Part shown: positions 4,994-60,766 of the stretch, piece after piece
How positions within the stretch are numbered: the stretch's first letter is position 1
How the letters are laid out: each line of letters opens with the position of its first letter
Source of the DNA: Minisyncoccia bacterium
Lineage (GTDB): Bacteria; Patescibacteriota; Minisyncoccia; Phycocordibacterales; UBA918
NCBI GenBank assembly: GCA_041736805.1
Contig: JBGSSW010000016.1
Span: 2,526 to 66,525, forward strand
DNA: 64,000 bases
Direction: 5' to 3'
Notes under the pieces: generated by a model
Databases searched by the model: none
What the model saw: only the letters and a program-made list of their open reading frames with translations
What the model was told of the DNA's origin: nothing
Program-made: the position numbers and the translations under genes

Positions 4994-5005
4994 CTAAATA
5001 AAAAA

Positions 5006-5036
5006 GCCTCGCGCCAAAGGCGCGAGGCTTTTTTTA
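5006..5036. terminator. bidirectional rho-independent terminator between rpmA and ppiB
   Basis: The perfect stem gcctcgcgcc/ggcgcgaggc encloses a 4-nt loop. It is flanked by an A-run upstream and a T-run downstream, so it can act on either strand. Confidence 0.6.
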
Positions 5037-6275: not shown

Positions 6276-7574
6276 CTATTCAGAAACAACTTCTTCTCCT
6301 TTCAAGAATTTAATAGCTACGTCTTGCTGAGGGTCAAGATTGTCCAAACGTTGTTGTGGAGTACGACTAATCTTGATGTCTGGCTTGAGTCCAGAATCAG
6401 AAATTGATATTCCTTCTGGAGTAAGCCATCTAGCCACAGTAATTTTAACTGATGAGCCATTATCTAATTGCACCAATTCCTGCACTGAACCTTTACCAAA
6501 AGTGTCCACCCCAATCAAAGTAGCTGCGTCATGTTCTCGCAGGGCGCCAGCCAAAATTTCAGAAGCAGAAGCTGATCCGCCGTCTATTAAAATAACCATT
6601 TCCTTAGCACTAAACTCTTTAATGGTTCTTCCCTGACTACGGTATAACTTTTCTTCATCGCCTTCACCGAAGTGTTCCCTTACAACTATCTTTCCGGTCG
6701 GCAGGAAGTAACCTGCAATGGCTACAGCACTCTGCAGATAACCCCCAGGATTTCCTCTTAGGTCCAAGACTATTTTGTTTGAGCCACTTTTTACATACTC
6801 TCTTAAGGCTTCTTGAAATTTCATCTCAGAGATAGCGTTAAAGCTATACAGTCTGATTATGAAAATTCCATCAACTACTTCGGTCTTGATGGTTGGAATA
6901 TTTATCGTGTCTCTAGTTACCGGTATTTCTCTGATTTCCAAATCACCTTCACGGAAGATTGAAAGCACCACTACAGTTCCCTTTTCACCTCGAATTAACT
7001 TAACCGCTTCATCGATCCTCATGCCGTCAGTATTTTGTCCATCGATTTTTACAATCAAATCTCCGGCCATAATACCAGCTCTTTCAGCTGGAGTGTCAGG
7101 CAAAGGTGCTATCACCGTTACAATATTATCTCTAATCCCCACCTCCATTCCTATCCCACTAAAATTACCGGAAATATCTTCAGCAAATTCCGCACTCTCA
7201 ACCGGAGGAAAAAATACTGTATAAGGGTCACCATAAGTTGCCACCAGACCTTCAATAGCTCCATTAATTTTGTCTTCATTAGATAAGCTAACAGTAGTAC
7301 TAGCAGAAATAAATTTTTCATCTAACAAATTCCAAACTTTCCAAAACTCGGTTAAGTCGGCCTCCTTATTTTCAGCTGAGTTAACAGGATTTGAAAAAAA
7401 AGAAAATAAGCTAGCTGTCTGATTTTCATTATTAAATAAAGTACTGGCTTGCAGGCCAGAGGTAAAGGATCCAGCGGCTAAGATTAGGGCTAGCGCGATA
7501 CCTAAATAATTACTTTTTTTGGAAGGTTTTCCTTGTTTTAATAAATCTGGATTAAATGGTTTTTCTTCATACAT
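6276..7574 (-). CDS. ctpA: carboxyl-terminal processing protease (S41 family) with a PDZ domain
   Basis: A PDZ region (GIMAGDLIVKIDG) is followed by the S41 signature LDLRGNPGGYL...IDGGSASASEILAGAL...GKGSVQ. An N-terminal TM anchor is present. Confidence 0.85.
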   Translation of the reverse strand: MYEEKPFNPDLLKQGKPSKKSNYLGIALALILAAGSFTSGLQASTLFNNENQTASLFSFFSNPVNSAENKEADLTEFWKVWNLLDEKFISASTTVSLSNEDKINGAIEGLVATYGDPYTVFFPPVESAEFAEDISGNFSGIGMEVGIRDNIVTVIAPLPDTPAERAGIMAGDLIVKIDGQNTDGMRIDEAVKLIRGEKGTVVVLSIFREGDLEIREIPVTRDTINIPTIKTEVVDGIFIIRLYSFNAISEMKFQEALREYVKSGSNKIVLDLRGNPGGYLQSAVAIAGYFLPTGKIVVREHFGEGDEEKLYRSQGRTIKEFSAKEMVILIDGGSASASEILAGALREHDAATLIGVDTFGKGSVQELVQLDNGSSVKITVARWLTPEGISISDSGLKPDIKISRTPQQRLDNLDPQQDVAIKFLKGEEVVSE

Positions 7575-9121: not shown

Positions 9122-9188
9122 ATTTACGACCTCAAAAGTTATAAACAAAGTCCACAGTACTGTGCAAAAGTAGTCAAGGAAGGAAGCG

Positions 9189-9206
9189 TGATACAATGCT
9201 ACCACT
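9189..9206 (+). promoter_or_regulatory. putative extended -10 promoter of dnaB (TGaTACAAT) lying 9 nt upstream of the ATG
   Basis: cgTGaTACAATgctaccactATG. No SD sequence separates the -10 element from the start codon. This implies a leaderless or very short leader. Confidence 0.35.
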
Positions 9207-10589
9207 ATGGCAGAAACACGTTCCACTAATCGTTCCTTACGGACACCTCCGCACAATATTGACGCTGAAAAAGCATTGCTGGGTGCGATTATTTTGAAAC
9301 CAGATGTTATGCATGATGTATCAGTGACGGTTTATCCTGAAAGCTTTTACGCCGATAAACACCGTGCAATTTACGATGCTGTTCTATCAATTTTTTCTAA
9401 AGGTGACCCTATAGATGTTGTTTCTTTAGTTTCAAAACTGAAGTCTAATAATACTCTCGATAGAGTAGGTGGTGCTAGCTATATAACTGAACTCATCGAG
9501 ACAGTACCCGCTGCCGGTAATGCCCACTACTACGCTGAACTTGTACAAGGAAAAGCCGCTCTCCGTAATCTTATCTATGCCGCTGATGATATTGCTGAAA
9601 TTGGCTACTCAGACCCAGAGAGTGTTGATGAAGCACTAGACCAAGCCGAGAAAAAAATCTTTCATGCCACCCAATCACCCACGGCGCAAAAATTTAAAAC
9701 TATCGGCACTTCCCTAACGGAAGCCTGGGAACGTTTTGAATACCTCAGTGCCAACCAAAATGAAAGACGTGGTGTGCCTTCCGGTTTTACTGCCCTAGAC
9801 AATGTTTTGGCTGGATTTCAAAAATCAGATTTGATTATCTTGGCGGCTCGCCCATCAATGGGAAAGACGACCTTTGCCTTGGACATTGCGCGTAACGCCG
9901 CCCTAAAATTTGGCGCCTCGGTTGGTATCTTTTCTCTAGAAATGAGTGACCAACAACTGGTGGACAGAATGCTAGCAGCTGAAGCTGGAGTTGACTCTTG
10001 GAAACTGCGAACGGGAAAACTTTCTAACGATCAAGAGTTTGAGGCTGTCCAACAAGCCATGGCTAAACTTTCTGACGCCCAAATACACATTGATGACCAA
10101 GCTGGCAACAACATTCTTAAGATGCGTTCGGCGGCGAGACGACTAAAAAACGAGCATGGTCTGGATTTGTTAATTGTAGACTACCTCCAGCTAATGTCCC
10201 CTACTGCTACCAAGGCTAGTGACTCCATGGTGCAACAAGTAACTGAAATTTCTCGCTCACTCAAAATCCTGGCTCGCGACCTAGAAGTACCAGTTCTTGC
10301 TCTTTCACAGCTCTCTCGAGCCGTAGAACAACGCGGTGGCAAGCCTCGCCTATCTGACTTGCGCGACTCTGGTTCTATCGAGCAGGATGCCGACGTGGTG
10401 ATGTTCATACACCGTGAGGACAAAATCAATAAAGAATCAGATCGGCCAAACATTGCTGAAATACTGGTAGAAAAGCACCGTAATGGTCCAGTTGGTTCAT
10501 GTGAATTATTCTTTGACGGTAAACACGTCCGTTTCCTCAATCTTGATACCAAGCATCACAGCGAAGCTGCTGCTCATGACGATTTCTAG
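9207..10589 (+). CDS. dnaB: replicative DNA helicase DnaB
   Basis: An N-terminal DnaB domain (IDAEKALLGAIIL) is present. The RecA-like core carries GFTALD...LIILAARPSMGKTTFALDIA (Walker A) and VDYLQLM. No intein is present. Confidence 0.9.
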   Translation: MAETRSTNRSLRTPPHNIDAEKALLGAIILKPDVMHDVSVTVYPESFYADKHRAIYDAVLSIFSKGDPIDVVSLVSKLKSNNTLDRVGGASYITELIETVPAAGNAHYYAELVQGKAALRNLIYAADDIAEIGYSDPESVDEALDQAEKKIFHATQSPTAQKFKTIGTSLTEAWERFEYLSANQNERRGVPSGFTALDNVLAGFQKSDLIILAARPSMGKTTFALDIARNAALKFGASVGIFSLEMSDQQLVDRMLAAEAGVDSWKLRTGKLSNDQEFEAVQQAMAKLSDAQIHIDDQAGNNILKMRSAARRLKNEHGLDLLIVDYLQLMSPTATKASDSMVQQVTEISRSLKILARDLEVPVLALSQLSRAVEQRGGKPRLSDLRDSGSIEQDADVVMFIHREDKINKESDRPNIAEILVEKHRNGPVGSCELFFDGKHVRFLNLDTKHHSEAAAHDDF

Positions 10590-10630: not shown

Positions 10631-11266
10631 ATGACTCCCCTCGATAAACTAATCGCCTATTTTGAAAAATTCCCTGGTATTGGCGGTCGCCAAGCCAAGC
10701 GTTTTGCTTTTCATATTTTAACTCTCAAGGATGAGCAAATAAGAGAACTAGCTTCTCTTATTACTTCCCTACCTAAATCAGTAACTGAGTGTACTCTATG
10801 TCACAGGTTTTTTTCATTTCAAAGTAACTCAGTCAATAACAACCGATGTTCCATTTGTAATGACGATTCTAGAGATAGTAGCAAGCTGATTGTCGTGGCC
10901 AGAGACACCGATATTCAAGCCATTGAAAGAAGTGGTGTCTATGATGGGTTATATTTTGTCCTAGGTGGGACAGCGCCCTTGCTAAATCAATCTGAAATAA
11001 ATTCCAGACTAAGGACTCCAGCTTTTAGAGCCTTAATAAGTAGCGGACTTGAAAGTAAACTCACAGAAGTTATTTTTGCTTTCTCTGTCAACCCAGACGG
11101 AGAAAATACTAGTCGCTATATTGAAAATGTTTTGAAAGAAATCCCAGGTTCGAATAAGCTTAAAATTTCTGAGATGGGGCGGGGTCTTTCGACTGGCAGT
11201 GAGCTAGAATACGCTGATTCAGAAACTATCAAAAATGCTCTCTCCAACCGAAGAGAACACAATTAA
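10631..11266 (+). CDS. recR: recombination protein RecR
   Basis: An HhH region (FPGIGGRQAKRFAFHIL) is followed by a C4 zinc finger (CTLCHRF...CSICN). A Toprim domain completes the protein. Confidence 0.9.
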   Translation: MTPLDKLIAYFEKFPGIGGRQAKRFAFHILTLKDEQIRELASLITSLPKSVTECTLCHRFFSFQSNSVNNNRCSICNDDSRDSSKLIVVARDTDIQAIERSGVYDGLYFVLGGTAPLLNQSEINSRLRTPAFRALISSGLESKLTEVIFAFSVNPDGENTSRYIENVLKEIPGSNKLKISEMGRGLSTGSELEYADSETIKNALSNRREHN

Positions 11267-11267
11267 A

Positions 11268-11293
11268 AAATCCGCCAACTGGCGGATTTTTTA
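11268..11293. terminator. bidirectional terminator between recR and rplU
   Basis: aaaaaATCCGCCaactGGCGGATttttt. A 7-bp GC stem is flanked by A and T runs. Confidence 0.55.
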
Positions 11294-11294
11294 A

Positions 11295-11627
11295 TTAGAT
11301 TGAGTCAATCTTTACTTCGGCGTAGTGTTGGCGGTGACCAAGACGTCGATCGCGGTTACTCTTGGCCTTGTAGCGAACGATAGTAAGCTTTGGACCATTC
11401 TTTTCACCTAGGTAAGTTGCCTTTACTTTAGTTCCAGTAGTTGGAGTGCCGACTTTTGCAGCTGAACCATCATCAGTCATCAGTACAGTATCAAATTCGA
11501 TTGCATCACCTTCCTTGTGCTCACCCATCAGCTCAACTAGAATAGTTTCGCCGACGGTAACGATGTATTGCTTGCCGCCGGTTGCAATAACTGCAAAAGC
11601 GTCCTTATTAGCTGTTTTTGTTGCCAT
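11295..11627 (-). CDS. rplU: 50S ribosomal protein L21
   Basis: MATKT...FAVIATGGKQYIVTVGETI... matches the L21 consensus (AVI.TGGKQY.V). The start was set at the internal Met (11627). rplU is not adjacent to rpmA in this genome. Confidence 0.85.
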   Translation of the reverse strand: MATKTANKDAFAVIATGGKQYIVTVGETILVELMGEHKEGDAIEFDTVLMTDDGSAAKVGTPTTGTKVKATYLGEKNGPKLTIVRYKAKSNRDRRLGHRQHYAEVKIDSI

Positions 11628-24757: not shown

Positions 24758-24854
24758 TCGAGGTTTTGTAAACTCATTCCGAACTCTTCCCATCCCTTCA
24801 TTTCCTTCACCAATTGGTTCCAACTTTGTCCCATTTGGGTCACAGAAATAAAAA

Positions 24855-24886
24855 ACACCCACAAGCAAATGCTTGTGGGTGTTTTC
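24855..24886. terminator. strong hairpin terminator (12-bp stem acacccacaagc/gcttgtgggtgt)
   Basis: A perfect stem encloses an aaat loop. The T-run is stronger on the minus-strand reading (ttttt attt). Confidence 0.5.
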
Positions 24887-37189: not shown

Positions 37190-37218
37190 ATGATAGCGTG
37201 TAATAAGCGTAAACGCAA
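37190..37218 (-). promoter_or_regulatory. putative lysS promoter: TTGCGT, 17-nt spacer, TATCAT, with the -10 element 10 nt upstream of the ATG and no SD
   Basis: Minus-strand reading ttgcgtTTACGCTTATTACACGCtatcatAAACCTCATT-ATG. Confidence 0.4.
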
Positions 37219-37244
37219 AAGCCCGGCGCCTTTGGCGCCGGGCT
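37214..37244 (-). terminator. greA terminator (agcccggcgcc-ttt-ggcgccgggct) followed by a U-run
   Basis: Perfect 10-11-bp GC stem. The minus-strand U-run is TTTTGCGTTT. Confidence 0.6.
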
Positions 37245-37261
37245 TTTTAAAACCAAATCAA

Positions 37262-39842: not shown

Positions 39843-40811
39843 TTAATTCGTGTTTAAAATTTCTTCTGAGCTTGTAGTTTGGACTTGACTACTTGAACTA
39901 AAATTTAGAACAGGAACATCGCTTAAACGAGTGGATTTTCTAATTGCTTCACGAACCTGTTCATCAATTATAAAATCTGATTTCACTTGTACTGGTTTTA
40001 AACCAACCGATACATACAGCAAACTATTCATTGCTAAAGGTGGAGTTATGTAACCATATTGTTCTGGCTGTGTTGGTTCACTTTCCACCCTAACAATTTC
40101 TCCATAAATCCCATTTGAGACATTTGGTAATATAACTAACTGTCCTAGGCGTATTGAGACACCTTGGGGCAAACTAACTCTAGCGACCCCGCCACCAACA
40201 CCTTCAATAGAAGAAAAAACGTTTGGACCAATAATAAAAGCCGTTGATTTAAAGCCAGGGGAAGTAAATAAATCTACAAAGGAGTAATCCTCTGCTGTAT
40301 GAACTACTATTCCTAGAACCGAATCTACTCCCGTATAAACAGGAGAACCTTCAACTACCCCATCGCTTATCCCCTTATCAATTTGAAGTAGGTCGTAAGT
40401 TAAAGTATCAGGCCGTGCTAAAACTCTTGCTACCACTCGATCATCAAAGACTGAAGCTTTATTCATTCCTCGCAGTTGCATGTTTTCTTCTAGCAAACGA
40501 TTAATGGACATTTGTGTACCACCACGGGTAGCTATTTCGCTTTTGAGTGACTCAATTTCACTTACTAAGTCTGCTTTAGAACGTAAGTATGATGGAAATA
40601 GTCTATCACTAGTTTTAACCCAAGTAGTAGTATAATGAATTGGGAACAAAACTATGGCTGATACTCTTGATATCAACCACGGAAAAAGTAGGCCTACAGA
40701 AATAACTACAGTTAAAATAATTATCCAAGAACGATAATTTTTATGTGAGGCGTGGCGATAATTCGCCTTCTTTGTCGATGAGTATTTCTGCATATAAATC
40801 AAGGTTTTCAA
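39843..40811 (-). CDS. mreC: rod shape-determining protein MreC
   Basis: An N-terminal TM segment and coiled-coil are followed by the beta-rich MreC domain. The start may be the Met at 40793; the ORF overlaps the mreB 3' end. Confidence 0.7.
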   Translation of the reverse strand: MKTLIYMQKYSSTKKANYRHASHKNYRSWIIILTVVISVGLLFPWLISRVSAIVLFPIHYTTTWVKTSDRLFPSYLRSKADLVSEIESLKSEIATRGGTQMSINRLLEENMQLRGMNKASVFDDRVVARVLARPDTLTYDLLQIDKGISDGVVEGSPVYTGVDSVLGIVVHTAEDYSFVDLFTSPGFKSTAFIIGPNVFSSIEGVGGGVARVSLPQGVSIRLGQLVILPNVSNGIYGEIVRVESEPTQPEQYGYITPPLAMNSLLYVSVGLKPVQVKSDFIIDEQVREAIRKSTRLSDVPVLNFSSSSQVQTTSSEEILNTN

Positions 40812-41814
40812 TTACAATTCCTGCTCCCCTAATGACGGCTCTAAGTGGATCAGGCACAACAATTACTGGAACTTGTAGGCTTTCTTCCAAAAACGAACTG
40901 AGCCCAGGAATTAAAGCTCCTCCACCAGAAAGATGAATACCTCTTTGCATAATATCAGCCAAAACCTCAGGTGGAGTTCGCTCTAAAACAGATCTAGTTG
41001 ATTCCACTATAATATCCACCTGCCCGGCAATAGCATCATGAATATCTCTGGCGGTGATAATCACCTCTCGGGGTAAACCAGTCATAACGTCCCGACCTCG
41101 AATCACCATTTCACTACCGTTACTTTCTTGTCGAATAGAAGCTAGGGCGATTTTCGCATCCTCTGCCGTTTTGTCACCCACATAAATTTTAAATTGGTCA
41201 CGAATATAAGAAGTAATTGAGTCATTTAGATGGTCTCCTGCTACACGAAGATTTTTAGAAACGACAATTCCACTCAAGGATATAACAGCGATATCAGTAG
41301 TCCCCCCACCGATATCAATCACCATACTGCCAACAGCCTTACCTATTGGTAGTTTTGCTCCAACAGCTGCAGCCATTGGTTCTTCAATTAAGAACACTTC
41401 TCTAGCTCCAGCGTTCTTAGCTGCATCACGAGCAGCTCTCATTTCGACATTTGTAATACCGGAAGGAACACCAACCAAGATTCGTGGGGCAATAAAAGTA
41501 CGTAAGTCGGCGTGAACTTTGTTAATTAAATAACCCAACATTTCTTCAGTTACTTCAAAGTCAGAAATAACACCGTCCACCAAAGGACGGATGACTTCAA
41601 TGTGTTGAGGAGTCCTGCCCTGCATAGTCTTAGCTTCCTGTCCAACAGCAACCAATTGGCCAGTTTTTTTATTAATAGCTACAATTGTAGGTTCATTCAA
41701 TACAATTCCCTTACCTTTCACATAAACTAACGTATTAGCAGTTCCAAGGTCAATAGCGATGTCGGTAGATACCGCCGCAAGCATTTTATTCAAGTATTTT
41801 GATACAAAACTCAT
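40741..41814 (-). CDS. mreB: rod shape-determining protein MreB
   Basis: Actin-fold motifs DLGTANTLVYV, VIDIGGGTTDIAV and LSGGGALIPGL. Confidence 0.9.
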   Translation of the reverse strand: MSFVSKYLNKMLAAVSTDIAIDLGTANTLVYVKGKGIVLNEPTIVAINKKTGQLVAVGQEAKTMQGRTPQHIEVIRPLVDGVISDFEVTEEMLGYLINKVHADLRTFIAPRILVGVPSGITNVEMRAARDAAKNAGAREVFLIEEPMAAAVGAKLPIGKAVGSMVIDIGGGTTDIAVISLSGIVVSKNLRVAGDHLNDSITSYIRDQFKIYVGDKTAEDAKIALASIRQESNGSEMVIRGRDVMTGLPREVIITARDIHDAIAGQVDIIVESTRSVLERTPPEVLADIMQRGIHLSGGGALIPGLSSFLEESLQVPVIVVPDPLRAVIRGAGIVIENLDLYAEILIDKEGELSPRLT

Positions 41815-41829
41815 TAGAGGGAAATTGTA

Positions 41830-43095
41830 CTACGTATCAGGATTAGCATCAAAGTCAGCGTAAATTTCATCCTCAGTTAACTGCCTTATATCACCAGTTG
41901 ATCTAGTAACAACTTCAAAAGTACCAGCTTCCTTAGATTTTTTACTAGCCACTATTCTATAAGGTAAACCGATTAAATCGCTATCAGCAAACTTTTCTCC
42001 TGCCCGAGCATCACGATTATCATAGAGAACTGAAATTCCTTTTTCCTTAAGAGAAGCATATATACCATCTACCCAATCTTTAATAGATTCATCTTCTAGA
42101 TTTAGACCGACGAGATGAACCTTAAAAGGAGCAACGCTTTCTGGCCAGACAATCCCTTTTTCGTCTGCAAACTTCTCTACCAAAACACCCATCATTCTGG
42201 TTATACCAATTCCGTATGAACCCATCCAAACTGGAACCCTCTCTCCTTTTTCGTCAGTAAAATAAAGACCAACTTCTTCCGCTTTCTGTCTGCCGAAGTT
42301 AAAAATGTTGCCTACCTCAGCTGTCTTAGTTGCAACCAACTCTTCTCTTGTCACACCTAATTCATTTAGATTTGTCTTTCCCAATACCTCCTCGTTAATA
42401 GCAATTCCTTTTTCTTTACAAATATAGGTAACATCTTCACCAGCTTCACATACTGTTTGAAACTCATGTGAAAACTCGGTGAAGGCCCCTCCGGCAGCAA
42501 AAGTGATAAAGGTATCATTACCAACCCCAAGTCGATCAAATGCTCTCATATAAGCCACCTTACAGGCTTCGTAAAACTCATTGTGCTGTTGTTCAGTGGC
42601 AGAAAATGAGTAGGCGTCTTTCATGATAAATTCACGGCCACGCATCACTCCACTTTTAGCTCTCACCTCATTCCGTAGTTTGTTTTGGAATTGATAGATA
42701 GCTACCGGTAAATCTTTGTGGCTAGAAATATGATTTTTCATCATATTTGCAAGCGGCTCTTCATGACTCCAGGCCAAACCTATTTGACCACCTGCTTTCA
42801 AATCTGTTTTAAACCAAATATCAACTACCTCATCATCCCAGCGACTGGTTCTCTCCCACAATTCTTTACTTTGTAAATTAGTAGCGATGAGTTCATTAGT
42901 ACCCAAATTCTTCATTTCTTCTCGTACAATCTGTTTAATTTTTTGAATAACCATTAAACCGAGCGGCAGTAATTGATATACCCCCGCCATTTCTTTATGA
43001 ATATACCCAGCCCTAATGAGTAATTGGGCGTTTTTAGCTACTTCGTCTGCTGGTACTTCCTTCTGAGTTTTTGTAAATAATTTTGATTGATGCAT
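41830..43095 (-). CDS. proS: prolyl-tRNA synthetase, short form without the editing insertion
   Basis: N-terminal MHQSKLFTKTQKEVPADE...LLIRAGYIH...YQLLPLGL matches the ProRS N-terminus. Class II motifs are present. At about 421 aa it lacks the INS domain. Confidence 0.85.
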   Translation of the reverse strand: MHQSKLFTKTQKEVPADEVAKNAQLLIRAGYIHKEMAGVYQLLPLGLMVIQKIKQIVREEMKNLGTNELIATNLQSKELWERTSRWDDEVVDIWFKTDLKAGGQIGLAWSHEEPLANMMKNHISSHKDLPVAIYQFQNKLRNEVRAKSGVMRGREFIMKDAYSFSATEQQHNEFYEACKVAYMRAFDRLGVGNDTFITFAAGGAFTEFSHEFQTVCEAGEDVTYICKEKGIAINEEVLGKTNLNELGVTREELVATKTAEVGNIFNFGRQKAEEVGLYFTDEKGERVPVWMGSYGIGITRMMGVLVEKFADEKGIVWPESVAPFKVHLVGLNLEDESIKDWVDGIYASLKEKGISVLYDNRDARAGEKFADSDLIGLPYRIVASKKSKEAGTFEVVTRSTGDIRQLTEDEIYADFDANPDT

Positions 43096-53340: not shown

Positions 53341-56106
53341 TTACATCATACCCCCTATTGCACTTGTAGCAACTGGCTTTTTGGCATAACGGGCAGATAT
53401 TTCTGCTTCTACCTCGGCTCGCGGTCGACCGTGTTTGGCAGCACTCATAGCAATCAGTTCTGCTACCCTATTTGGATCAGACTGAATTGGTGGTCGCATC
53501 GCCACACTAAAGGGTTTGGTTGGTATGCCATTGGCCAAGATACGCACTAGAGCATTGTAATTTGGGACATTCATTAAATCTCTCGCCTCAAACACCGGGG
53601 CGAATTGCTGCTCTAAAAACTGAGCGTCTTCTGAACCAACTCGGAAAGAAACCAAAGAACCGACATTACCGAAAACAGCATCCTTGATACTTTGATCTAA
53701 CTGAGCAATAAACTGATGTACGACAGTCAGACTCAGCTTGTATTTACGAGCTTCAGAAAGAATTGAAGCAATCGCTGGAGTAGAAACGTTTTGAAACTCA
53801 TCAATATGTAAAAAGAATGGTGGGAAACTTTTTGAAGCATCATCAACTCTTGAAAGTGCTGCCATTAATATCTTGCCGACAAAAATCATTCCGATCAGAT
53901 TAGCATTGATTTCACCCAGTCGACCTTTAGAAAGATTTACCAACAAGATTTTTTTCTCGTCCATCACCTGGCGGAAATTAAAAGCGGATTTTTGCTGACC
54001 AATAATCGGTCGCATGTAGTCGTTGGCTGTAAAGACGTCAAACTTAGATACGATGTAAGGGACAATATTTTCTAGGGAGGCTTCCCCGCCAGCCTTGGTA
54101 GCAATTTCTGTCCAAAACTGAACCACCACTGGATTCTTGGCTTTTGATAATTTATATCTTCGGTACTGTGCGTCCACCATTACACGGGAAATGTCCATCA
54201 AAGTATTGCCACTTTCTGGATCTTCCATCACTAGCATCGTGGCGTTGCGGAAGTATTGTTCAAACATCGGACCCATACTTTCAGGATTAGCACCATAAAG
54301 TTTCTGGAAAATTGAAAATAGTTCATTGACCACAAAGGTCTTTTGTTCTGGTTTGGTGATATCATACTCCAGCATATTAAGGCCTACCGCACTCTCCATT
54401 CTTGCTGGGTCAAAATAAATAACATCCTGCTCTCTTTCCTTTGGCATGGCTCCCAATACTTCTTCAATATCAGTGCCGTGAGGATCAATCATACAAACAC
54501 CATTGCCAGATTGAATATCCTGAATAATCGTATTGGTCATAAACTTAGACTTTCCTGTACCAGTTTGCCCAATAACATATAGATGTCGCATCCGATCAAG
54601 CTCGGTCATATAAATTGGCCTTTCTACACCACGATGTCGGTTGTCGCCAATCAGAGTCCCTTGGGTTGGTATATCATTTGGCGCTGGAGCGGTATTAGAT
54701 TGTGATTGCTTAAATTGAGGTGAGCTCAAAATACCATTACTAGGGAAATGAATCATTGTCGCCAGCTCAGTTAATGACAGGGGCAAGGCCGCTTTAGCTG
54801 AGAACTCACGAAATGAAAAAGCCTTCTGCAAATGTAATAAAGAACTACCAGTAGCTTTTTTAAAAGCAAAAGAATTACCTTCAACTAAATCAAACTGATT
54901 AAAAGTTGATTGAATTTCGGTCATTATTTGCTCAGCTCGAGCTGGATCTGCCGCTGAAACAGCCAAACGTATATTTGTTTCAATAATTTCAGTTTGGATT
55001 TTCTTATTAAAAATATCCACCTTATCTATATCAGGTGAAGTAACAACTTCTGGTTGATCGGTTTTGGTCTTTGAATTAAATAAATCAGAAATCGCTCCTA
55101 TGATTCCCCCACTTACACTGCTGCGTGAAATGGCGTCAGACGCTTTCTTACCCTTTTGAATATTTTTAATAATTTCCTGATAAGATTTCCGATACTTTTT
55201 TTGTGGATACCGCATCACAAATTGTACAGCTGCACCACCGCCTTCTCTCTCAATTTTTGAAAATGCATTCAATATCACAGCTAAAGGATCGGAAGAAAAA
55301 CCGTCAGGTGTCCGTAGCGGGTAAATAGGATGTTTTTTGATTTGTGCTTCTGAAATAATAGTCTTTCCTTTGTCGACAAAGATATTATAGTCGTGTGCTT
55401 GAATAATTAACTCAGCGTGAGGGAAAAGCGAGAGGGTTTGTTTTTCAAACAAATTTACAAACTTGTTCGGTACGGCTACATAAAAAACAATATCATCACT
55501 ATTGTCAGCCACTGCTATTTCAATCACAAAATGATTTTCAGACTGCTGTGAGCCTATTGTACGTAGTCCAGCAAAAAGTTGCTCCATCATGCTCACAATC
55601 TCTGCCAACTGGTATTCACGGCCATCTTTAGATTTTACCTCTGGTAAGGTCACTTCATAGAGTGTCATGCTCAACATCTGCCAAGGTGGAACGTTTTCCT
55701 TTAAGTCTTGGATTTTTGAACCGGAACGGATTTGTTCAATTAATTGCCGGTGAACTTCGTCGACTATATAGGCGTTGTCCATTTTTTCTAGTACCGACAA
55801 GGCATTGCGAATCCCTTTCTCCTTGGCTAATTCTAAAATATCGGTCACTGGATCGTGTGAAATGGCGACTTGTTCAATTGAAGCAGCTAAAGCTGGTTCA
55901 TCCAGCAAGTGTTCACGATCAAGAATAATTCTCGGTGTAAAAGAAGCGTATTCTTTTATTTCTTGATTGCCGATTGTTTCAGTATCAGAATTATCACTTT
56001 CAGGGTTACGTTGCAAAAGCTCTCGCTCTCGCTCAGCAATACGTTCACGTAAGTACAACAACTCCTCCTCTGGAGAGGAAAACTGTTTTGGTATCCCTTC
56101 TGGCAT
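53341..56106 (-). CDS. VirB4/TraC/TrbE-family (DUF87/HerA-like) type IV secretion-type ATPase
   Basis: 921 aa. The C-terminal ATPase carries Walker A VIGQTGTGKSKF, Walker B FFLHIDEFQN and a downstream VVHQF...L motif, with domain spacing typical of VirB4/TraC. The N-terminal roughly 480 aa are not assignable. Confidence 0.7.
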   Translation of the reverse strand: MPEGIPKQFSSPEEELLYLRERIAERERELLQRNPESDNSDTETIGNQEIKEYASFTPRIILDREHLLDEPALAASIEQVAISHDPVTDILELAKEKGIRNALSVLEKMDNAYIVDEVHRQLIEQIRSGSKIQDLKENVPPWQMLSMTLYEVTLPEVKSKDGREYQLAEIVSMMEQLFAGLRTIGSQQSENHFVIEIAVADNSDDIVFYVAVPNKFVNLFEKQTLSLFPHAELIIQAHDYNIFVDKGKTIISEAQIKKHPIYPLRTPDGFSSDPLAVILNAFSKIEREGGGAAVQFVMRYPQKKYRKSYQEIIKNIQKGKKASDAISRSSVSGGIIGAISDLFNSKTKTDQPEVVTSPDIDKVDIFNKKIQTEIIETNIRLAVSAADPARAEQIMTEIQSTFNQFDLVEGNSFAFKKATGSSLLHLQKAFSFREFSAKAALPLSLTELATMIHFPSNGILSSPQFKQSQSNTAPAPNDIPTQGTLIGDNRHRGVERPIYMTELDRMRHLYVIGQTGTGKSKFMTNTIIQDIQSGNGVCMIDPHGTDIEEVLGAMPKEREQDVIYFDPARMESAVGLNMLEYDITKPEQKTFVVNELFSIFQKLYGANPESMGPMFEQYFRNATMLVMEDPESGNTLMDISRVMVDAQYRRYKLSKAKNPVVVQFWTEIATKAGGEASLENIVPYIVSKFDVFTANDYMRPIIGQQKSAFNFRQVMDEKKILLVNLSKGRLGEINANLIGMIFVGKILMAALSRVDDASKSFPPFFLHIDEFQNVSTPAIASILSEARKYKLSLTVVHQFIAQLDQSIKDAVFGNVGSLVSFRVGSEDAQFLEQQFAPVFEARDLMNVPNYNALVRILANGIPTKPFSVAMRPPIQSDPNRVAELIAMSAAKHGRPRAEVEAEISARYAKKPVATSAIGGMM

Positions 56107-56125
56107 AATCCTAATTGTACAGTAC
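56107..56125 (-). promoter_or_regulatory. -10-like TACAAT (preceded by TG) 7 nt upstream of the VirB4-like ATG, with no SD
   Basis: Minus-strand reading cTGTACAATtaggatt-ATG. The AATTAGG(A)TT-ATG spacing resembles the paralog promoters. Confidence 0.3.
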
Positions 56126-56162
56126 TACAAGAAATGAATTTGCGAGCAATCCACCTAAATAA

Positions 56163-56192
56163 AAACCGTCAGGCTACGCCTGACGGTTTTTA
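56163..56192. terminator. rho-independent terminator (ccgtcaggc-tac-gcctgacgg) between the mreB paralog and the VirB4-like gene
   Basis: A perfect 9-bp stem is flanked by AAAAA upstream and TTTTTTATTT downstream. It works on either strand. Confidence 0.6.
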
Positions 56193-56205
56193 TTTAGATA
56201 TCTTG

Positions 56206-57252
56206 TTAGCGCTTGGCCAAAACGGTCTTCTTGTAAGCATCTAAGTGTTCTAGAGCAATACCCGTGCCAGTAGCGACACAAAAAAGAGCTTGGTCTGCCA
56301 GATGAGCCTTCACTCCCGAACGTCGTTTGACTAGCTCAGGAAAGTTTCTTAGTTGTGAAGTCCCGCCAGTCATAATTACTCCCCCATCAATAATATCTGC
56401 TGCGAGTTCAGGTGGGGTCTCTTGAAATACATCTTTAATCGCTTTTATCATTTCACGCAAGTCTCGACTTATTGCTCGCACTACTTCATTTGTTCTTATC
56501 TCAGTTGTTCTAGGTAAACCAGAGAGTACATCTCGCCCTTTAATGTCCATTACTAGTTCTTCTTCCAAAGGTAAGGCTGAACCAATTTTAATTTTAATTT
56601 CTTCGGCTGTCTTTTCACCAATGGAAAGATTTCTAGTTTTTTTAACATAATCAATTATCGAAGCATCGATTCGATTTCCCGCACACTTCACTGAGTTTGA
56701 AGCTACAATTCCTCCTAGAGAAATCACGGCTACGTCGATTGTTCCGCCGCCAATATCGACAATCATGTGTCCTTGTGGTTCATAAATCGGCACCCCGGCT
56801 CCAATCGCCGCCAAAATCGGCTCCTTAACCACATAAGCATTTCTAGCTCCAGCTTTAAGAGTTGCCTCAACCACCGCTCGTCGTTCAGTTGAAGTCACTC
56901 CAGCTGGTACGGATATCATTACATCAGGTTTAAATAAGTTGAACCGACTCATGGATTTACGAATAAAATATCGCAACATAACTTCGGTGACTCGGTAATC
57001 TGCAATTACTCCGTCTTTCATCGGTCGATAGGCCTTGATACTGTCTGGAGTACGTCCTATCATTCGCTTTGCTTCTATTCCGACAGCTAAGACTTCATTA
57101 TCATCAGAGATAGCCACTACAGAGGGTTCGTTTAAAACAATTCCTTGTCCCGGTATAAATACCAAAATACTAGTTGTACCTAAATCAATACCAATCTTCG
57201 GGTTTAAATTATTCCAAAACATCATATTATTTATCTTGCCAACATAGTACAA
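56206..57252 (-). CDS. second MreB/Mbl-like actin homologue
   Basis: KIGIDLGTTSILVF, MIVDIGGGTIDVAV and MTGGTSQLRNF match MreB phosphate-1/phosphate-2/adenosine motifs. The ORF-track start at 57252 is TTG; a Met at 57225 or 57222 is the more likely start. Confidence 0.8.
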   Translation of the reverse strand: MYYVGKINNMMFWNNLNPKIGIDLGTTSILVFIPGQGIVLNEPSVVAISDDNEVLAVGIEAKRMIGRTPDSIKAYRPMKDGVIADYRVTEVMLRYFIRKSMSRFNLFKPDVMISVPAGVTSTERRAVVEATLKAGARNAYVVKEPILAAIGAGVPIYEPQGHMIVDIGGGTIDVAVISLGGIVASNSVKCAGNRIDASIIDYVKKTRNLSIGEKTAEEIKIKIGSALPLEEELVMDIKGRDVLSGLPRTTEIRTNEVVRAISRDLREMIKAIKDVFQETPPELAADIIDGGVIMTGGTSQLRNFPELVKRRSGVKAHLADQALFCVATGTGIALEHLDAYKKTVLAKR

Positions 57253-57274: not shown

Positions 57275-57306
57275 AGTCAAGTATAGCATGTATGCTATAC
57301 TTGACT
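57275..57306. promoter_or_regulatory. perfect 15-bp inverted repeat with a 2-nt spacer (agtcaagtatagcat-gt-atgctatacttgact) abutting the HTH-MurA start codon: candidate operator and bidirectional promoter
   Basis: Verified base by base. TATACT -10-like hexamers occur on both strands inside the palindrome. The ATG of the HTH-MurA gene lies 1 nt after it. Confidence 0.5.
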
Positions 57307-57307
57307 C

Positions 57308-58807
57308 ATGCAAAATATTGGACACCGCATCGCTGACATGCGTGAGACAAAGGGAATTACTCAGGCAGACCTAGCCAAAAAGCTCAAAACTACTCAAAGT
57401 GCTATTGCTCGTATTGAATCTGGTAAACAAAATATTAGTGCCGATATGCTCAAACGTATTGGTAAAGCTCTGGGTAAAAACCTCATTACCCTTTCTCCAG
57501 GAACAGTTAATATCCAAATTGAAGGTGGCAAAAAACTGTCAGGTACTATCGAAACCAATACCTCAAAAAATGGTGCGGTCGGTCTTTTGTGTGCCAGCTT
57601 ACTAAACCGCGGCATCACCACATTAAACCGCATGCCGAGAATAGAAGAAGTCCATCGAATAATTGAAGTCTTAGAGAGTATTGGGGTTAGGGTTGAATGG
57701 AAAGGAGATAAGGTAGTAATTACACCACCCAAAAAAATTAACCTAAATAAAATTGATGTTGAAGCTGCTAAAAAAACTCGCAGTATTGTGATGTTTATCG
57801 GTCCACTAATTCATCGCCTTGGCTCTTTTAGCCTTCCCCAATCGGGAGGCTGCAAACTAGGCAGCCGAACTGTTAGACCTCATTTCTATGCCCTAGAAAA
57901 ATTTGGTGTAAATATAAATACTACAGATAAAAATTATGAAATTAAGACAAAATTAACTTCTCCAGAAGAAATTATCCTTTATGAATCAGGTGACACTGTC
58001 ACGGAAAACACCTTATTTGCAGCTGCTCTAAACCAAGGTACCACTACCATAAAATACGCTTCGGCCAATTATATGGTTCAAGAAGTTTGCGCTTTCTTGA
58101 GCTTACTGGGAGTAAAAATCGAAGGCGTTGGTACGACTACTCTTAAAGTAACCGGGATAAAAGAAATTAACCAAGCTGTCGAATACACCCTTTCAGAAGA
58201 CCCGACTGACACAATGTTTTTCTTGGCCGCTGCCATAGTGACTGACTCTTCTATCACTATTACTCGTTGTCCAATAAATTTTCTCGAACTTGAACTACTG
58301 AAATTGGAAAAAATGGGTTTTGAATATAAAAAATCAAAACCTTACCTTAGTTACAATGGAGTGACTAACCTGGTAGATATCACGACCAAGCCTTCCAAAC
58401 TAGTAGCTTTACATGAAAAAATTCATCCGGCAGTTTACCCCGGCTTAAATATAGACAACCTACCTTTCTTTGCTGTTATCGCTACTCAGGCCGAAGGACA
58501 AACTCTCATTCATGATTGGGTCTATGAAAAACGCGCCATTTATTTTACCGAGCTAGACAAACTCGGCGCTGACACCGTCTTGGCCGACCCCCATCGAATT
58601 TACATTAATGGCCCGACACCACTTCGAGCAAGTGAGCTAATCTGCCCTCCAGCCTTACGTCCGGCTACCATCCTCCTTATTGCCATGCTCGCTGCCAAAG
58701 GACATTCGATTTTACGCAATATTTATAGTATTAATCGTGGTTATGAAAAACTAATCGAAAGACTATCTTCAATTGGGGCCAGGGTCTCATATCTTGACGA
58801 ATTCTAA
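57308..58807 (+). CDS. murA: XRE-family HTH domain fused to UDP-N-acetylglucosamine 1-carboxyvinyltransferase (MurA)
   Basis: Residues 1-60 read IGHRIADMRETKGITQADLAKKLKTTQSAIARIESGKQNIS, a canonical XRE HTH. The remainder is MurA/EPSP-synthase fold (LSGTIETNTSKNGAVGLLCASLL and downstream). 499 aa in a single continuous ORF. Confidence 0.75.
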   Translation: MQNIGHRIADMRETKGITQADLAKKLKTTQSAIARIESGKQNISADMLKRIGKALGKNLITLSPGTVNIQIEGGKKLSGTIETNTSKNGAVGLLCASLLNRGITTLNRMPRIEEVHRIIEVLESIGVRVEWKGDKVVITPPKKINLNKIDVEAAKKTRSIVMFIGPLIHRLGSFSLPQSGGCKLGSRTVRPHFYALEKFGVNINTTDKNYEIKTKLTSPEEIILYESGDTVTENTLFAAALNQGTTTIKYASANYMVQEVCAFLSLLGVKIEGVGTTTLKVTGIKEINQAVEYTLSEDPTDTMFFLAAAIVTDSSITITRCPINFLELELLKLEKMGFEYKKSKPYLSYNGVTNLVDITTKPSKLVALHEKIHPAVYPGLNIDNLPFFAVIATQAEGQTLIHDWVYEKRAIYFTELDKLGADTVLADPHRIYINGPTPLRASELICPPALRPATILLIAMLAAKGHSILRNIYSINRGYEKLIERLSSIGARVSYLDEF

Positions 58808-58870
58808 ATAAAATTGGTGCCAACAGGTAAATCTGACCAACTAGTATAAGTCTGGTACAATTACCGCCAC

Positions 58871-60766
58871 ATGTTTGTTATTCAGGTAATTCCGCTTATT
58901 CGGGGCACAAAAATTGATAAACTTTCCTATTTTAGTGCGACAGAATATGAACTGGGAACCTTTCTAACCATCCCTATCCGAGGCAAAGAACATCCCGCTA
59001 TAGTCACTGAAGTTAATCCAGTAGCTGATAATAAAAGTTCGCTTAAAAGTGCTTCTTTTACTTTACGTAAACTGCCTGAACAAACCCCATTATCTTCCGT
59101 TCCCAAAAATATTCAAAGTACGGCGAAGTTACTACAAAAAATATATCCCAGTTCAGCCGGGGCCATTTTATATCAATTACTTCCGCCCGACGTTCGTACT
59201 GGCGAATATAAATATCCACTGGTTTCTTCGCTCGTGCACAAAGAAGATACTACCCCACAAATACTTACAGCTACCTTAAAGGATAGGTACGTTTCTTACC
59301 GTAGCCATATCAGAAGTGTTCTCGCTAGACGAGGCTCCGTCGTATTTGTTGTCCCTACTAGCGCTGATGTTCAGTACGCTGTCACTAATCTTTCTCAAGG
59401 TATTGAAGATAGAGTGGTAATTTTTTCTCCGGCCCAAACAAAAACTGAGCGCCGTAAATCTTACGCCGCCTATGAAGATACAAGTCTAGCAAAATTGATT
59501 ATCACAACACCTTCTCATGCTTACTTAGACCGCGTAGATTTATTATCTATAATCATAGAAAACTCGGCCAACGATTTTTATCGCAGCAAACAAAGACCCT
59601 ACCTTGATCACCGGACCGCTCTTGAAACCTACGCTAAAGCCACCGGAAGGGACATTCTGCTTGGTGATATTCTACCTAGAACTGAGGATGAATACTTGCG
59701 CAGAATGGAATTGTTCACGACCTACAATCAAGAGACAAAACGCTTATCTTTTACCTCCCCACTTACTATTATTACCCAACACGACAAATCAACTCCAGAA
59801 AAACCTTTTACTCTCTTTTCAAAAAAATTAACAGCTAGGGTTAATAATGTCCTCGAAGCCAAAGGACGAGTGTTCATGTATGGTGCCAGACGAGGTATCG
59901 CTCCAGTAGTAACTTGTATTGATTGTGGTCATATCTTCCGTTGCCCTGATTCGGATACTCCCTATTCCTTAGTAAAAACTACTTCTAAAACTGGCAACGA
60001 AGAAAGGTGGTTTGTCTCAGGTACTTCCGGCAAAAAAATTCGCGCTGCCGACACTTGTCCTGATTGCGGCTCGTGGCGTCTGCGTACTAGAGGAATTGGT
60101 ATCCAGCAAGTTCATGATGAAGCTTTGTCCACCTTTCCCAAACACAAAATATTCCTACTAGACCACATTACAGCCTCCACCAGGAAACGAGCTCAAACAA
60201 TTATTGATGATTTTTATAAATGCCGAGGAGCTATTTTACTTGGTACGCAAATGGCCCTACCTTATTTGAATGCACATGAAATAGATTTGAGCGCGATAAT
60301 TTCTCTCGATGCTACTCGCTCTAACCCTACTTGGCGCGCAGACGAAAATGTTTTTCGCCTATTACTGCAGCTACGAGAAATTAGCCGTCAAGAAGTCTTG
60401 ATTCAAACTAGAACTGAAGTTGATTCTCTTTTGCAAAGTGCTACACATGGAGCTTTAGAAGCTTTTTACAATGAAGAAATCCAACTGCGCGAACAGCTTA
60501 AATATCCTCCTTTTTCTACCTTTGTCTTACTTAGTTGGACTGGTGATAAAAGCGCAGTAGCAGAAACTGAAGAGATGATTAAAAAATTGACTGAAACAAA
60601 AACGGCTGATTACTACAGCAACCCGAATTCAGCGGATAACAAAATTCTTCGTCATGCGTTATTTAGAATTCCCCCAACTATTAAGGATAAAGATATTTTT
60701 ATGGAAATACTTAGAAATCTACCGCCGTATATTCGAATTGAAATAGACCCGCCGAGAATTGTCTAA
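58871..60766 (+). CDS. priA: primosomal protein N' (PriA)-like protein with a degenerate helicase P-loop
   Basis: A PriA-type zinc-binding region is present: CIDCGHIFRCPDSD...CPDCGSWRLRTRGIGIQQV. The C-terminal helicase and winged-helix region are conserved (LLGTQMALPYL...). The Walker A position reads VVFVVPTSADVQ instead of a GKT motif. The priA-def-fmt order is conserved. Confidence 0.55.
   Translation: MFVIQVIPLIRGTKIDKLSYFSATEYELGTFLTIPIRGKEHPAIVTEVNPVADNKSSLKSASFTLRKLPEQTPLSSVPKNIQSTAKLLQKIYPSSAGAILYQLLPPDVRTGEYKYPLVSSLVHKEDTTPQILTATLKDRYVSYRSHIRSVLARRGSVVFVVPTSADVQYAVTNLSQGIEDRVVIFSPAQTKTERRKSYAAYEDTSLAKLIITTPSHAYLDRVDLLSIIIENSANDFYRSKQRPYLDHRTALETYAKATGRDILLGDILPRTEDEYLRRMELFTTYNQETKRLSFTSPLTIITQHDKSTPEKPFTLFSKKLTARVNNVLEAKGRVFMYGARRGIAPVVTCIDCGHIFRCPDSDTPYSLVKTTSKTGNEERWFVSGTSGKKIRAADTCPDCGSWRLRTRGIGIQQVHDEALSTFPKHKIFLLDHITASTRKRAQTIIDDFYKCRGAILLGTQMALPYLNAHEIDLSAIISLDATRSNPTWRADENVFRLLLQLREISRQEVLIQTRTEVDSLLQSATHGALEAFYNEEIQLREQLKYPPFSTFVLLSWTGDKSAVAETEEMIKKLTETKTADYYSNPNSADNKILRHALFRIPPTIKDKDIFMEILRNLPPYIRIEIDPPRIV

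Follow-up and report, generated by a model that had tools for sequence, protein, structure and literature searches.

A MurA fused to a Cro/C1-type DNA-binding domain in Patescibacteria: a probable autorepressing enzyme at the entry to peptidoglycan synthesis

Bifunctional enzyme-repressors are exemplified by BirA, NadR and PutA, the first of which is both the biotin protein ligase and the repressor of the bio operon. MurA, the entry to peptidoglycan synthesis, is the target of fosfomycin. The way its level is set is an active question, answered so far by proteolysis in Firmicutes, where ReoM and ReoY, together with the protease ClpCP and under the control of PrkA, determine how much of the enzyme is present. 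The ultra-small Patescibacteria are a major radiation in which transcription factors are very scarce. Here we describe a murA gene from this group, carried by a stretch of 64,000 nucleotides (nt) of a Minisyncoccia bacterium (assembly GCA_041736805.1, contig JBGSSW010000016.1, positions 2,526 to 66,525 of the forward strand), which as a whole is called the window in what follows. In this gene a helix-turn-helix (HTH) domain of the Cro/C1 type (XRE family) precedes MurA in a single polypeptide, HTH-MurA. Quite probably, as judged from sequence comparison, this protein is an autorepressing bifunctional "trigger enzyme", two molecules of which would occupy an 18-bp operator and lower transcription of their own gene.

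The comparison with known systems is instructive on several counts. As in BirA, NadR and PutA, a DNA-binding domain stands N-terminal to an enzyme (here of presumed activity) and an operator lies at the promoter of the protein's own or pathway genes, an arrangement in which the enzyme domain can report metabolite status. The locus differs from these in that the enzyme is MurA, essential for the cell wall, and in that control by a ligand is a proposal only; moreover, the DNA-binding domain is a Cro/C1-type one, whereas BirA uses a winged helix and PutA a ribbon-helix-helix. With the 434 repressor and the Cro-type XRE autoregulators (ImmR, DdrO, SinR-like proteins) it shares an 18-bp two-fold symmetric site overlapping its own promoter, and XRE regulators typically autoregulate via palindromes upstream of their own open reading frame (ORF) (PMC12565409). 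By contrast with them, the C-terminal partner is an enzyme of 430 amino acids (aa), not a small oligomerisation or sensor domain, and the gene is a housekeeping cell-wall gene, not part of a phage, toxin-antitoxin or stress-response module. Another counterpart is the XRE-HTH-shikimate kinase (NF006015 / PRK08154), which also places an HTH in front of an enzyme-type domain and gives a weak HTH match. It has another fold, belongs to another pathway and is named 'anaerobic benzoate catabolism transcriptional regulator', while HTH-MurA is annotated only as an enzyme. As in the ReoM/ReoY system of Firmicutes, the amount of MurA would be the controlled variable for peptidoglycan flux; that system is post-translational and made of separate proteins, whereas the control proposed here is transcriptional and built into the enzyme. 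Finally, canonical MurA (E. coli and E. cloacae, PDB 1UAE and 1NAW) has the same fold (TM up to 0.95) and the same catalytic Cys loop, Lys and Arg, and lacks both the N-terminal extension of about 67 residues (HTH plus linker) and the roughly 15 residues inserted here near aa 343-365. The architecture itself is already visible in databases, and its only trace in the texts searched is a Pfam-based table in which PF00275 has HTH_3 for a "promiscuous" partner, with 218 proteins (PMC9394408). Full-text searching, with subscription journals outside the coverage, turned up no account of HTH-MurA, its operator or any autoregulation by it. What appears to be new is a probable XRE autoregulator, or trigger enzyme, with MurA as its effector domain. 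The features that matter for the argument are the following, in window coordinates; the model confidence given for the linker is the predicted local distance difference test (pLDDT).

57308..58807, plus strand: HTH-murA fusion gene, 499 aa plus stop codon, ATG start, single frame
57308..57487, plus strand: Cro/C1 (XRE, HTH_3) DNA-binding domain, aa 1-60, four helices, Pfam HTH_3
57389-57412, plus strand: recognition helix T28-R35 (TTQSAIAR), within the HTH domain
57488..57508, plus strand: flexible linker TLSPGTV, aa 61-67, pLDDT < 50 at residues 61-64
57509..58792, plus strand: MurA (UDP-N-acetylglucosamine, UDP-GlcNAc, 1-carboxyvinyltransferase) domain, aa 68-495
57851-57853, plus strand: codon of catalytic Cys182, in the MurA domain, where Lys87 and Arg187 also lie
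57275..57306, no strand: perfect palindrome AGTCAAGTATAGCAT gt ATGCTATACTTGACT, 15-nt arms, 2-nt spacer
57282..57299, no strand: conserved operator core TATAGC-N6-GCTATA, here TATAGCATGTATGCTATA, 18 bp, predicted site of an HTH dimer
57293..57301, plus strand: extended -10 element TGCTATACT, TG at 57293-57294, hexamer at 57296-57301

A first-pass annotation, made from the sequence, had read here one continuous ORF with an XRE HTH of about 60 aa, a short linker and a full-length MurA, and the profile databases agree. Pfam HTH_3 matches the N-terminus at aa 8-59 with 52.6-56.8 bits (cut-off 23), Pfam EPSP_synthase matches the C-terminal part at aa 72-486 with 164 bits, and the protein passes the NCBIfam MurA subfamily NF006873 over aa 68-495 (325.1 bits against a cut-off of 297). 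That the HTH is a canonical member of the XRE family is borne out both by this HTH_3 score and by alignment of the isolated domain with the DNA-binding part of the repressor of phage 434 (E 5.6e-5), with TTQSAIAR facing TTQQSIEQ. Residues R12, T18, Q19, A23, T28, Q30, S31, R35, E37, G39 and N42 are invariant in 64 diverse sequences, which points to purifying selection on the DNA-facing surface. In an AlphaFold2 model of the fusion (pLDDT 89.3), the HTH helices span residues 4-14, 19-26, 30-37 and 45-55, linker residues 61-64 are disordered, and the body of MurA is confidently placed, in the two-domain inside-out alpha/beta barrel fold of the family (Foldseek TMt 0.88-0.95 to more than 40 MurA chains). 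GGC(182)KLGSR(187) aligns to the GGCaiGqR loop of the solved MurA structures and SK(87)N to their aKN; Cys182 and Lys87 correspond to Cys115 and Lys22 of E. coli. The model is that of a monomer, silent on dimerisation and DNA contacts, and no solved structure among its matches spans an HTH together with MurA. Inspection of the sequence from the end of the HTH to the first strand of MurA found no in-frame ATG, GTG or TTG, so that MurA cannot be produced separately.

The same annotation regarded the fusion as an unusual arrangement, and suggested looking for it in relatives. It turns out to be the standard form of MurA across much of Patescibacteria. All 120 best homologues listed (81-100% identity) combine PF00275 with PF01381, as do 120 of the 120 proteins listed in a search from a divergent member; the latter, all annotated plainly as MurA, are labelled by source as Liptonbacteria, Taylorbacteria, Colwellbacteria, Doudnabacteria and others. 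A survey limited to one genome per species gathered 80 loci, all from Patescibacteria metagenome-assembled genomes and bearing the names Nomurabacteria, Kaiserbacteria, Paceibacteria and, for some, "Saccharibacteria"; an uninterrupted fusion of about 499 aa is present in approximately 75 of these species-level loci. The gene occupies a housekeeping position, in the order mreB-murA-priA-def-fmt. An exhaustive search of cluster representatives extends full-length fusions down to 30-39% identity. The fusion is also present in cultured Nonomuraea (Actinomycetota), as a cluster of 246 proteins at 54% identity, including RefSeq WP_214634277, named either "MurA" or "helix-turn-helix domain-containing protein". 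Such identity to a protein of the Candidate Phyla Radiation suggests horizontal transfer and, possibly, an extra murA copy. In Nonomuraea sp. NEAU-A123 (L081, 1281-5605), a Formyl_trans_C/ECH_1 gene is followed after 16 nt by HTH-murA, then by a phage-integrase gene.

Upstream of the gene, the arms of the palindrome (57275-57289 and 57292-57306) are 100% complementary and end 1 nt before the ATG, as the first reading of a perfect 15-bp palindrome adjoining the start codon had it; the TATACT -10-like hexamers seen on both strands are there as well, by symmetry. A rough estimate puts the number of perfect 15-nt palindromes of this kind expected in 64 kb at about 8e-4, and the other perfect inverted repeats of at least 14 nt in the window are all terminator-like hairpins, with an A-run, a GC stem and a T-run. 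The idea that the palindrome is the site of an XRE dimer survives for the core of the structure: the comparative data fit a cognate operator, yet only the inner 18-20 bp are conserved elsewhere, the outer 6-7 bp of each arm being peculiar to the source genome. A promoter scan recovers TAGTCA-16-TATACT within the palindrome, with its end at 57301 and a TG ahead of the -10 hexamer. The extended -10 of murA coincides with the right half-site of the operator. Counting from the hexamer, the start codon opens at the 7th nt, so that the murA mRNA would be leaderless. Palindromic arms going beyond the 18-20-bp core are seen only in the window (15-nt arms) and in L001 (1049-1092, 20-nt arms with 1 mismatch), and the extra flanks, here at 57275-57281 and 57300-57306, differ in sequence between the two; such an extension could reflect an extra protein contact or a "perfection" of the palindrome by template switching.

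The presence of the operator follows that of the HTH. Under a relaxed motif and a limit of 130 nt, it precedes 73 of the 75 fusion genes and none of the four HTH-less murA genes; the two misses, L062 and L070, contain near-matches. In fusion loci it is mostly located 9-14 nt before the ATG, the -10-to-ATG geometry of murA recurs in related loci, and the flanking DNA yields only 16 other matches in 556 kb. A neighbour-joining tree built on the MurA domain scatters the HTH-less genes L061, L065 and L066 over three distinct positions, and these genes display no operator, no HTH relic (tblastn) and no separate XRE ORF; L061 and L065 sit in the same mreB-murA-priA position as the fusion genes, and L061 keeps the -10 part only (AGCATCTGTTATACT). 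This distribution is consistent with the HTH having been lost repeatedly, and its site with it. Gene fission in these HTH-less relatives, with a small XRE gene left upstream, was considered and rejected, tblastn finding no HTH relic and no such ORF being present. To this must be added that the site does not depend on its neighbour. It is kept where a co-directional ORF separates mreB from murA (L006, L009, L022, L027), where a tRNA-like sequence following a co-directional rbfA precedes murA (L089), and where murB(-like), parB(-like) or relA genes replace mreB upstream. The left half-site being retained without any leftward gene argues for binding of a dimer, not for a second promoter. The central 6 nt vary freely and asymmetrically (GCCTAT or GTTTAT, for example), and the half-sites are conserved in sequence, not merely in pairing. 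In Nonomuraea an AT-rich palindrome, cATCTCATATGTGAGATa, stands out of GC-rich DNA 13 nt before the ATG, overlapping the end of the upstream gene. The co-directional ORF, of about 210-220 aa (L006 2258-2887; L009 2235-2891; L022 2220-2888; L027 2258-2887), belongs to Nomurabacteria- and Kaiserbacteria-type genomes, and has a signal-peptide-like N-terminus and an NGSFE.G..GW motif.

The sequence of the site, in turn, follows that of the recognition helix. Of the 118 half-sites paired with helix TTQSA, 115 read ATAGC; of the 24 paired with TSQSA, 18 read ATATC; and all 16 paired with TSQSS(I/V)P read ATATC or ATCTC. In a rough tree TS/ATATC looks ancestral, and TT/ATAGC is found on at least 2-3 separate branches, among them the large clade of the window and Doudnabacteria L088, and also in L059, L075 and L062, where the operators are mixed, their two half-sites being of different types. 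In the alignment to the 434 repressor, the residue that varies faces Thr27, which adjoins the base-contacting Gln28 and Gln29. There is, then, an apparent amino-acid-to-base code, matching Thr or Ser at helix position 2 with G or T at half-site position 5.

A divergent clade (P0131, P0132, P0140, P0144, P0146, P0237, P0249) has kept the HTH and lost the GGC...R loop; several members have also lost the Lys, and their NF006873 scores, 135-235 bits, lie under the cut-off of 297. In L082 and L085 the loop-less gene points away from a murA-murB pair whose murA is genuine and lacks the HTH (325 bits in L082, 311 in L085), and it has ddl and/or a Mur ligase gene downstream; the short intergenic region reads ATATCATATATGATAT in L082 and TATAACATATATGCTATA in L085. 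In L087 an operator site is located 20 nt upstream of the loop-less gene, and in L086 one heads a NUDIX / NTP-transferase / HTH-MurA-like operon. Most simply, a CATALYTICALLY dead derivative of this kind would be a regulator, since the HTH, the operator and the peptidoglycan-precursor neighbourhood are kept while catalysis is given up. By extension, the HTH of the active enzyme would be a working DNA-binding domain. Two of these loci form compact clusters (L082 1624-7321 and L085 1504-6791) of murB, HTH-less murA, the divergent loop-less HTH-MurA-like gene, ddl and a Mur ligase gene, and the ddl of L082 is fused to a Peptidase_C39_2-like domain.

We would picture the system as follows. The C-terminal domain would be the cell's MurA, in charge of the first committed step of peptidoglycan synthesis, the one argument that it is the only MurA of its genome being the gene order shared with HTH-less murA (L061, L065). 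The 434-repressor-like N-terminal domain would bind TATAGC-N6-GCTATA as a dimer and, once there, the protein would cover TGCTATACT, the extended -10 that serves the presumably leaderless murA mRNA, and exclude RNA polymerase. It is because the operator covers this element that we infer blocking of the polymerase, repression rather than activation, and negative autoregulation, the enzyme repressing its own synthesis and thereby holding its level steady; DNA binding and dimerisation have to be granted on the same comparative footing. To be sure, a number of points weigh against this autorepression. The strict equivalog TIGR01072 has a cut-off that the fusion protein fails to reach (315.9 versus 392.7), and this shortfall, together with the approximately 15-residue insertion relative to solved MurA structures, makes enzyme activity a presumption. 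Canonical MurA is usually described as a monomer, and dimerisation would therefore have to proceed through HTH-HTH contacts on DNA or through the MurA domain. The right half-site doubling as a -10, part of its conservation could be that of a promoter. The covariation of helix and half-site follows phylogeny, and the count of independent switches relies on a rough neighbour-joining tree; support for autorepression as a whole is comparative. Finally, there is no second operator in the window, where the sole near-match is GATAGCGTTAAAGCTATA at 6831-6848, and this speaks against a regulon beyond murA itself and, possibly, its divergent neighbour. That near-match, one mismatch away from the operator, was discarded as a second site: it falls within the coding sequence of an S41-type C-terminal processing peptidase (ORF 6276-7574, minus strand), and chance, with 0.17 such matches expected, can account for it. 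An operator-like ATATTAGTGCCGATAT is further noted at 57432-57447, inside the HTH coding region, where it encodes QNISADM; the same position holds an exact match to the operator pattern in L007, L063 and L071. It is probably a coincidence of coding, less probably an auxiliary site.

The divergent gene next to murA deserves separate treatment, together with its surroundings.

56206..57225, minus strand: divergent mreB paralogue, conserved start ATG at 57225, longest ORF from TTG at 57252
57244..57249, minus strand: -10-like hexamer TACTAT before mreB, in a conserved block with minus-strand consensus ATTTGGGGAAAAGCGGTACTAT
56155..56197, no strand: terminator-like hairpin (A-run, GC stem, T-run) between mreB and a VirD4/TraG-like gene

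In most close relatives mreB is the divergent neighbour. The conserved block with TACTAT is likely to be a separate mreB promoter. The left edge of the operator abuts the -35 position of this putative promoter, and for that reason some influence of the operator on the adjacent mreB promoter in the source genome has to be allowed for. The first-pass annotation went further, with a possible bidirectional promoter coupling MurA to mreB and to the VirB4-like operon that mreB precedes. The first half of this proposal is undermined by the operator staying at murA when the neighbours are other or co-directional genes, and by mreB having its own promoter-like block left of the operator. As for the second, the strong terminator-like hairpin at 56155-56197 separates mreB from the genes resembling a type IV secretion system, and a coupling of MurA to secretion-like genes is unsupported. 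The window also contains a second mreB paralogue (40771-41814, minus strand), 39.5% identical to the one adjacent to murA.

Other accounts of the locus have to be set against autorepression. A sequencing or assembly frameshift joining a small XRE regulator gene to murA has nothing in its favour beyond having been raised as a possibility in the earlier reading, and it is practically out of the question: conservation of the intact fusion across many genomes (the ORF of about 499 aa in approximately 75 independent species-level assemblies, hundreds of metagenomic proteins from different sources and the Nonomuraea isolate genomes) excludes an artefact, and no separate start codon is available to the MurA part. 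A very unlikely account would make of the HTH a protein-protein module that tethers MurA to MreB filaments, the palindrome being then two back-to-back extended -10 promoters. RodZ indeed binds MreB through an XRE-like HTH, mreB is so often the divergent neighbour, and TGnTATACT reads on both strands by symmetry, so that promoters for murA and mreB are both possible. Yet the RodZ-type profile HTH_25 gives 17.6 bits only, under its cut-off of 24.6, when HTH_3 gives 56.8, and the protein has no membrane or hydrophobic segment, a 7-residue linker leading directly to MurA. Nor would tethering explain why the full palindrome is kept next to co-directional, tRNA-like, murB, parB and relA neighbours and in Nonomuraea, why the residues of the recognition helix are invariant, or why the free 'n' base of TGnTATAAT changes symmetrically, in step with that helix; and mreB has its own conserved promoter-like block.

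It is also conceivable, if improbable, that the protein binds the operator and activates, or acts mainly on the divergent gene, which is mreB here and murB or murA-murB elsewhere. At many loci the operator does sit between divergent genes, with mreB, murB or murA-murB on its other side, and in the window it touches the -35 of the putative mreB promoter; against this, its core overlaps the murA -10 and, at nearly every locus, is 8-13 nt from the ATG, as is usual for a repressor, and loci without a divergent gene keep the site. Still less credible is a palindrome acting as an RNA or DNA hairpin or cruciform (attenuator, terminator, processing site) or as the site of another regulator, with an unrelated HTH. 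The 32-nt palindrome of the window, if transcribed, would fold at -19.3 kcal/mol (z = -7.3), but the conserved cores fold weakly (-3.3 to -8 kcal/mol), their central 6 nt vary asymmetrically between half-sites conserved in sequence, and no T-run follows the palindrome. With the -10 lying in its right arm, moreover, the palindrome would be outside the murA mRNA, and presence of the site tracks the HTH just as its sequence tracks the recognition helix.

Autorepression could be taken one step further, into a metabolite-gated trigger enzyme, and this we hold as a tentative idea, on the doubtful side. The open or closed state of MurA, as set by UDP-GlcNAc, by phosphoenolpyruvate (PEP) or by the feedback ligand UDP-N-acetylmuramic acid (UDP-MurNAc), would decide whether the HTH dimerises on the operator, so that the status of peptidoglycan precursors would feed back on transcription of the first committed step. 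The catalytically dead proteins found beside murA-murB-ddl might then be the same device, now turned into a pure UDP-sugar sensor and repressor. Among the solved MurA structures matched, several contain UDP-MurNAc along with a covalent PEP adduct. Ligand gating is suggested by these many UDP-MurNAc crystal complexes, by the analogy with BirA, NadR and PutA and by the pseudoenzyme clade.

Some further observations concern the window at large. A -10-like TAnnnT, often after TGn, stands 6-10 nt before the ATG, without a Shine-Dalgarno sequence, at many genes of the window (58853-58873, 9180-9210, 40741-41830, 53341-56125 and others), as exemplified by TGGTACAAT plus 9 nt before the priA-like gene and by TGATACAAT before the ORF at 9207; the source genome appears to make wide use of leaderless or near-leaderless mRNAs. 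Long perfect inverted repeats with an A-run and a T-run, at 56155-56197, 11261-11296, 5000-5034, 24852-24885 and 37217-37247, look, in their position between genes, like bidirectional intrinsic terminators. Downstream of murA, an ORF of 631 aa (58871-60766, plus strand) has no Pfam match at E <= 0.01. It is rich in Cys, with CxxC motifs, and the gene in the same position in a relative has a weak PriA_3primeBD match; the ORF is probably a divergent PriA.

In terms of annotation, hundreds to thousands of entries named "UDP-N-acetylglucosamine 1-carboxyvinyltransferase" are probably also transcription factors, and the members of the clade that lacks the catalytic loop are probably not enzymes. 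The system has features that lend themselves to testing, with its 18-bp operator, its recognition code, its natural losses of the HTH, its dead derivatives and a homologue in cultivable Nonomuraea. If the ligand-gated version were true, wall synthesis in Patescibacteria, poor as they are in regulators, might have HTH-MurA as its main or even its sole transcriptional control. Autorepression by itself would already amount to a control built into the enzyme, widespread in these organisms, where MurA would carry its own repressor domain to its own promoter.

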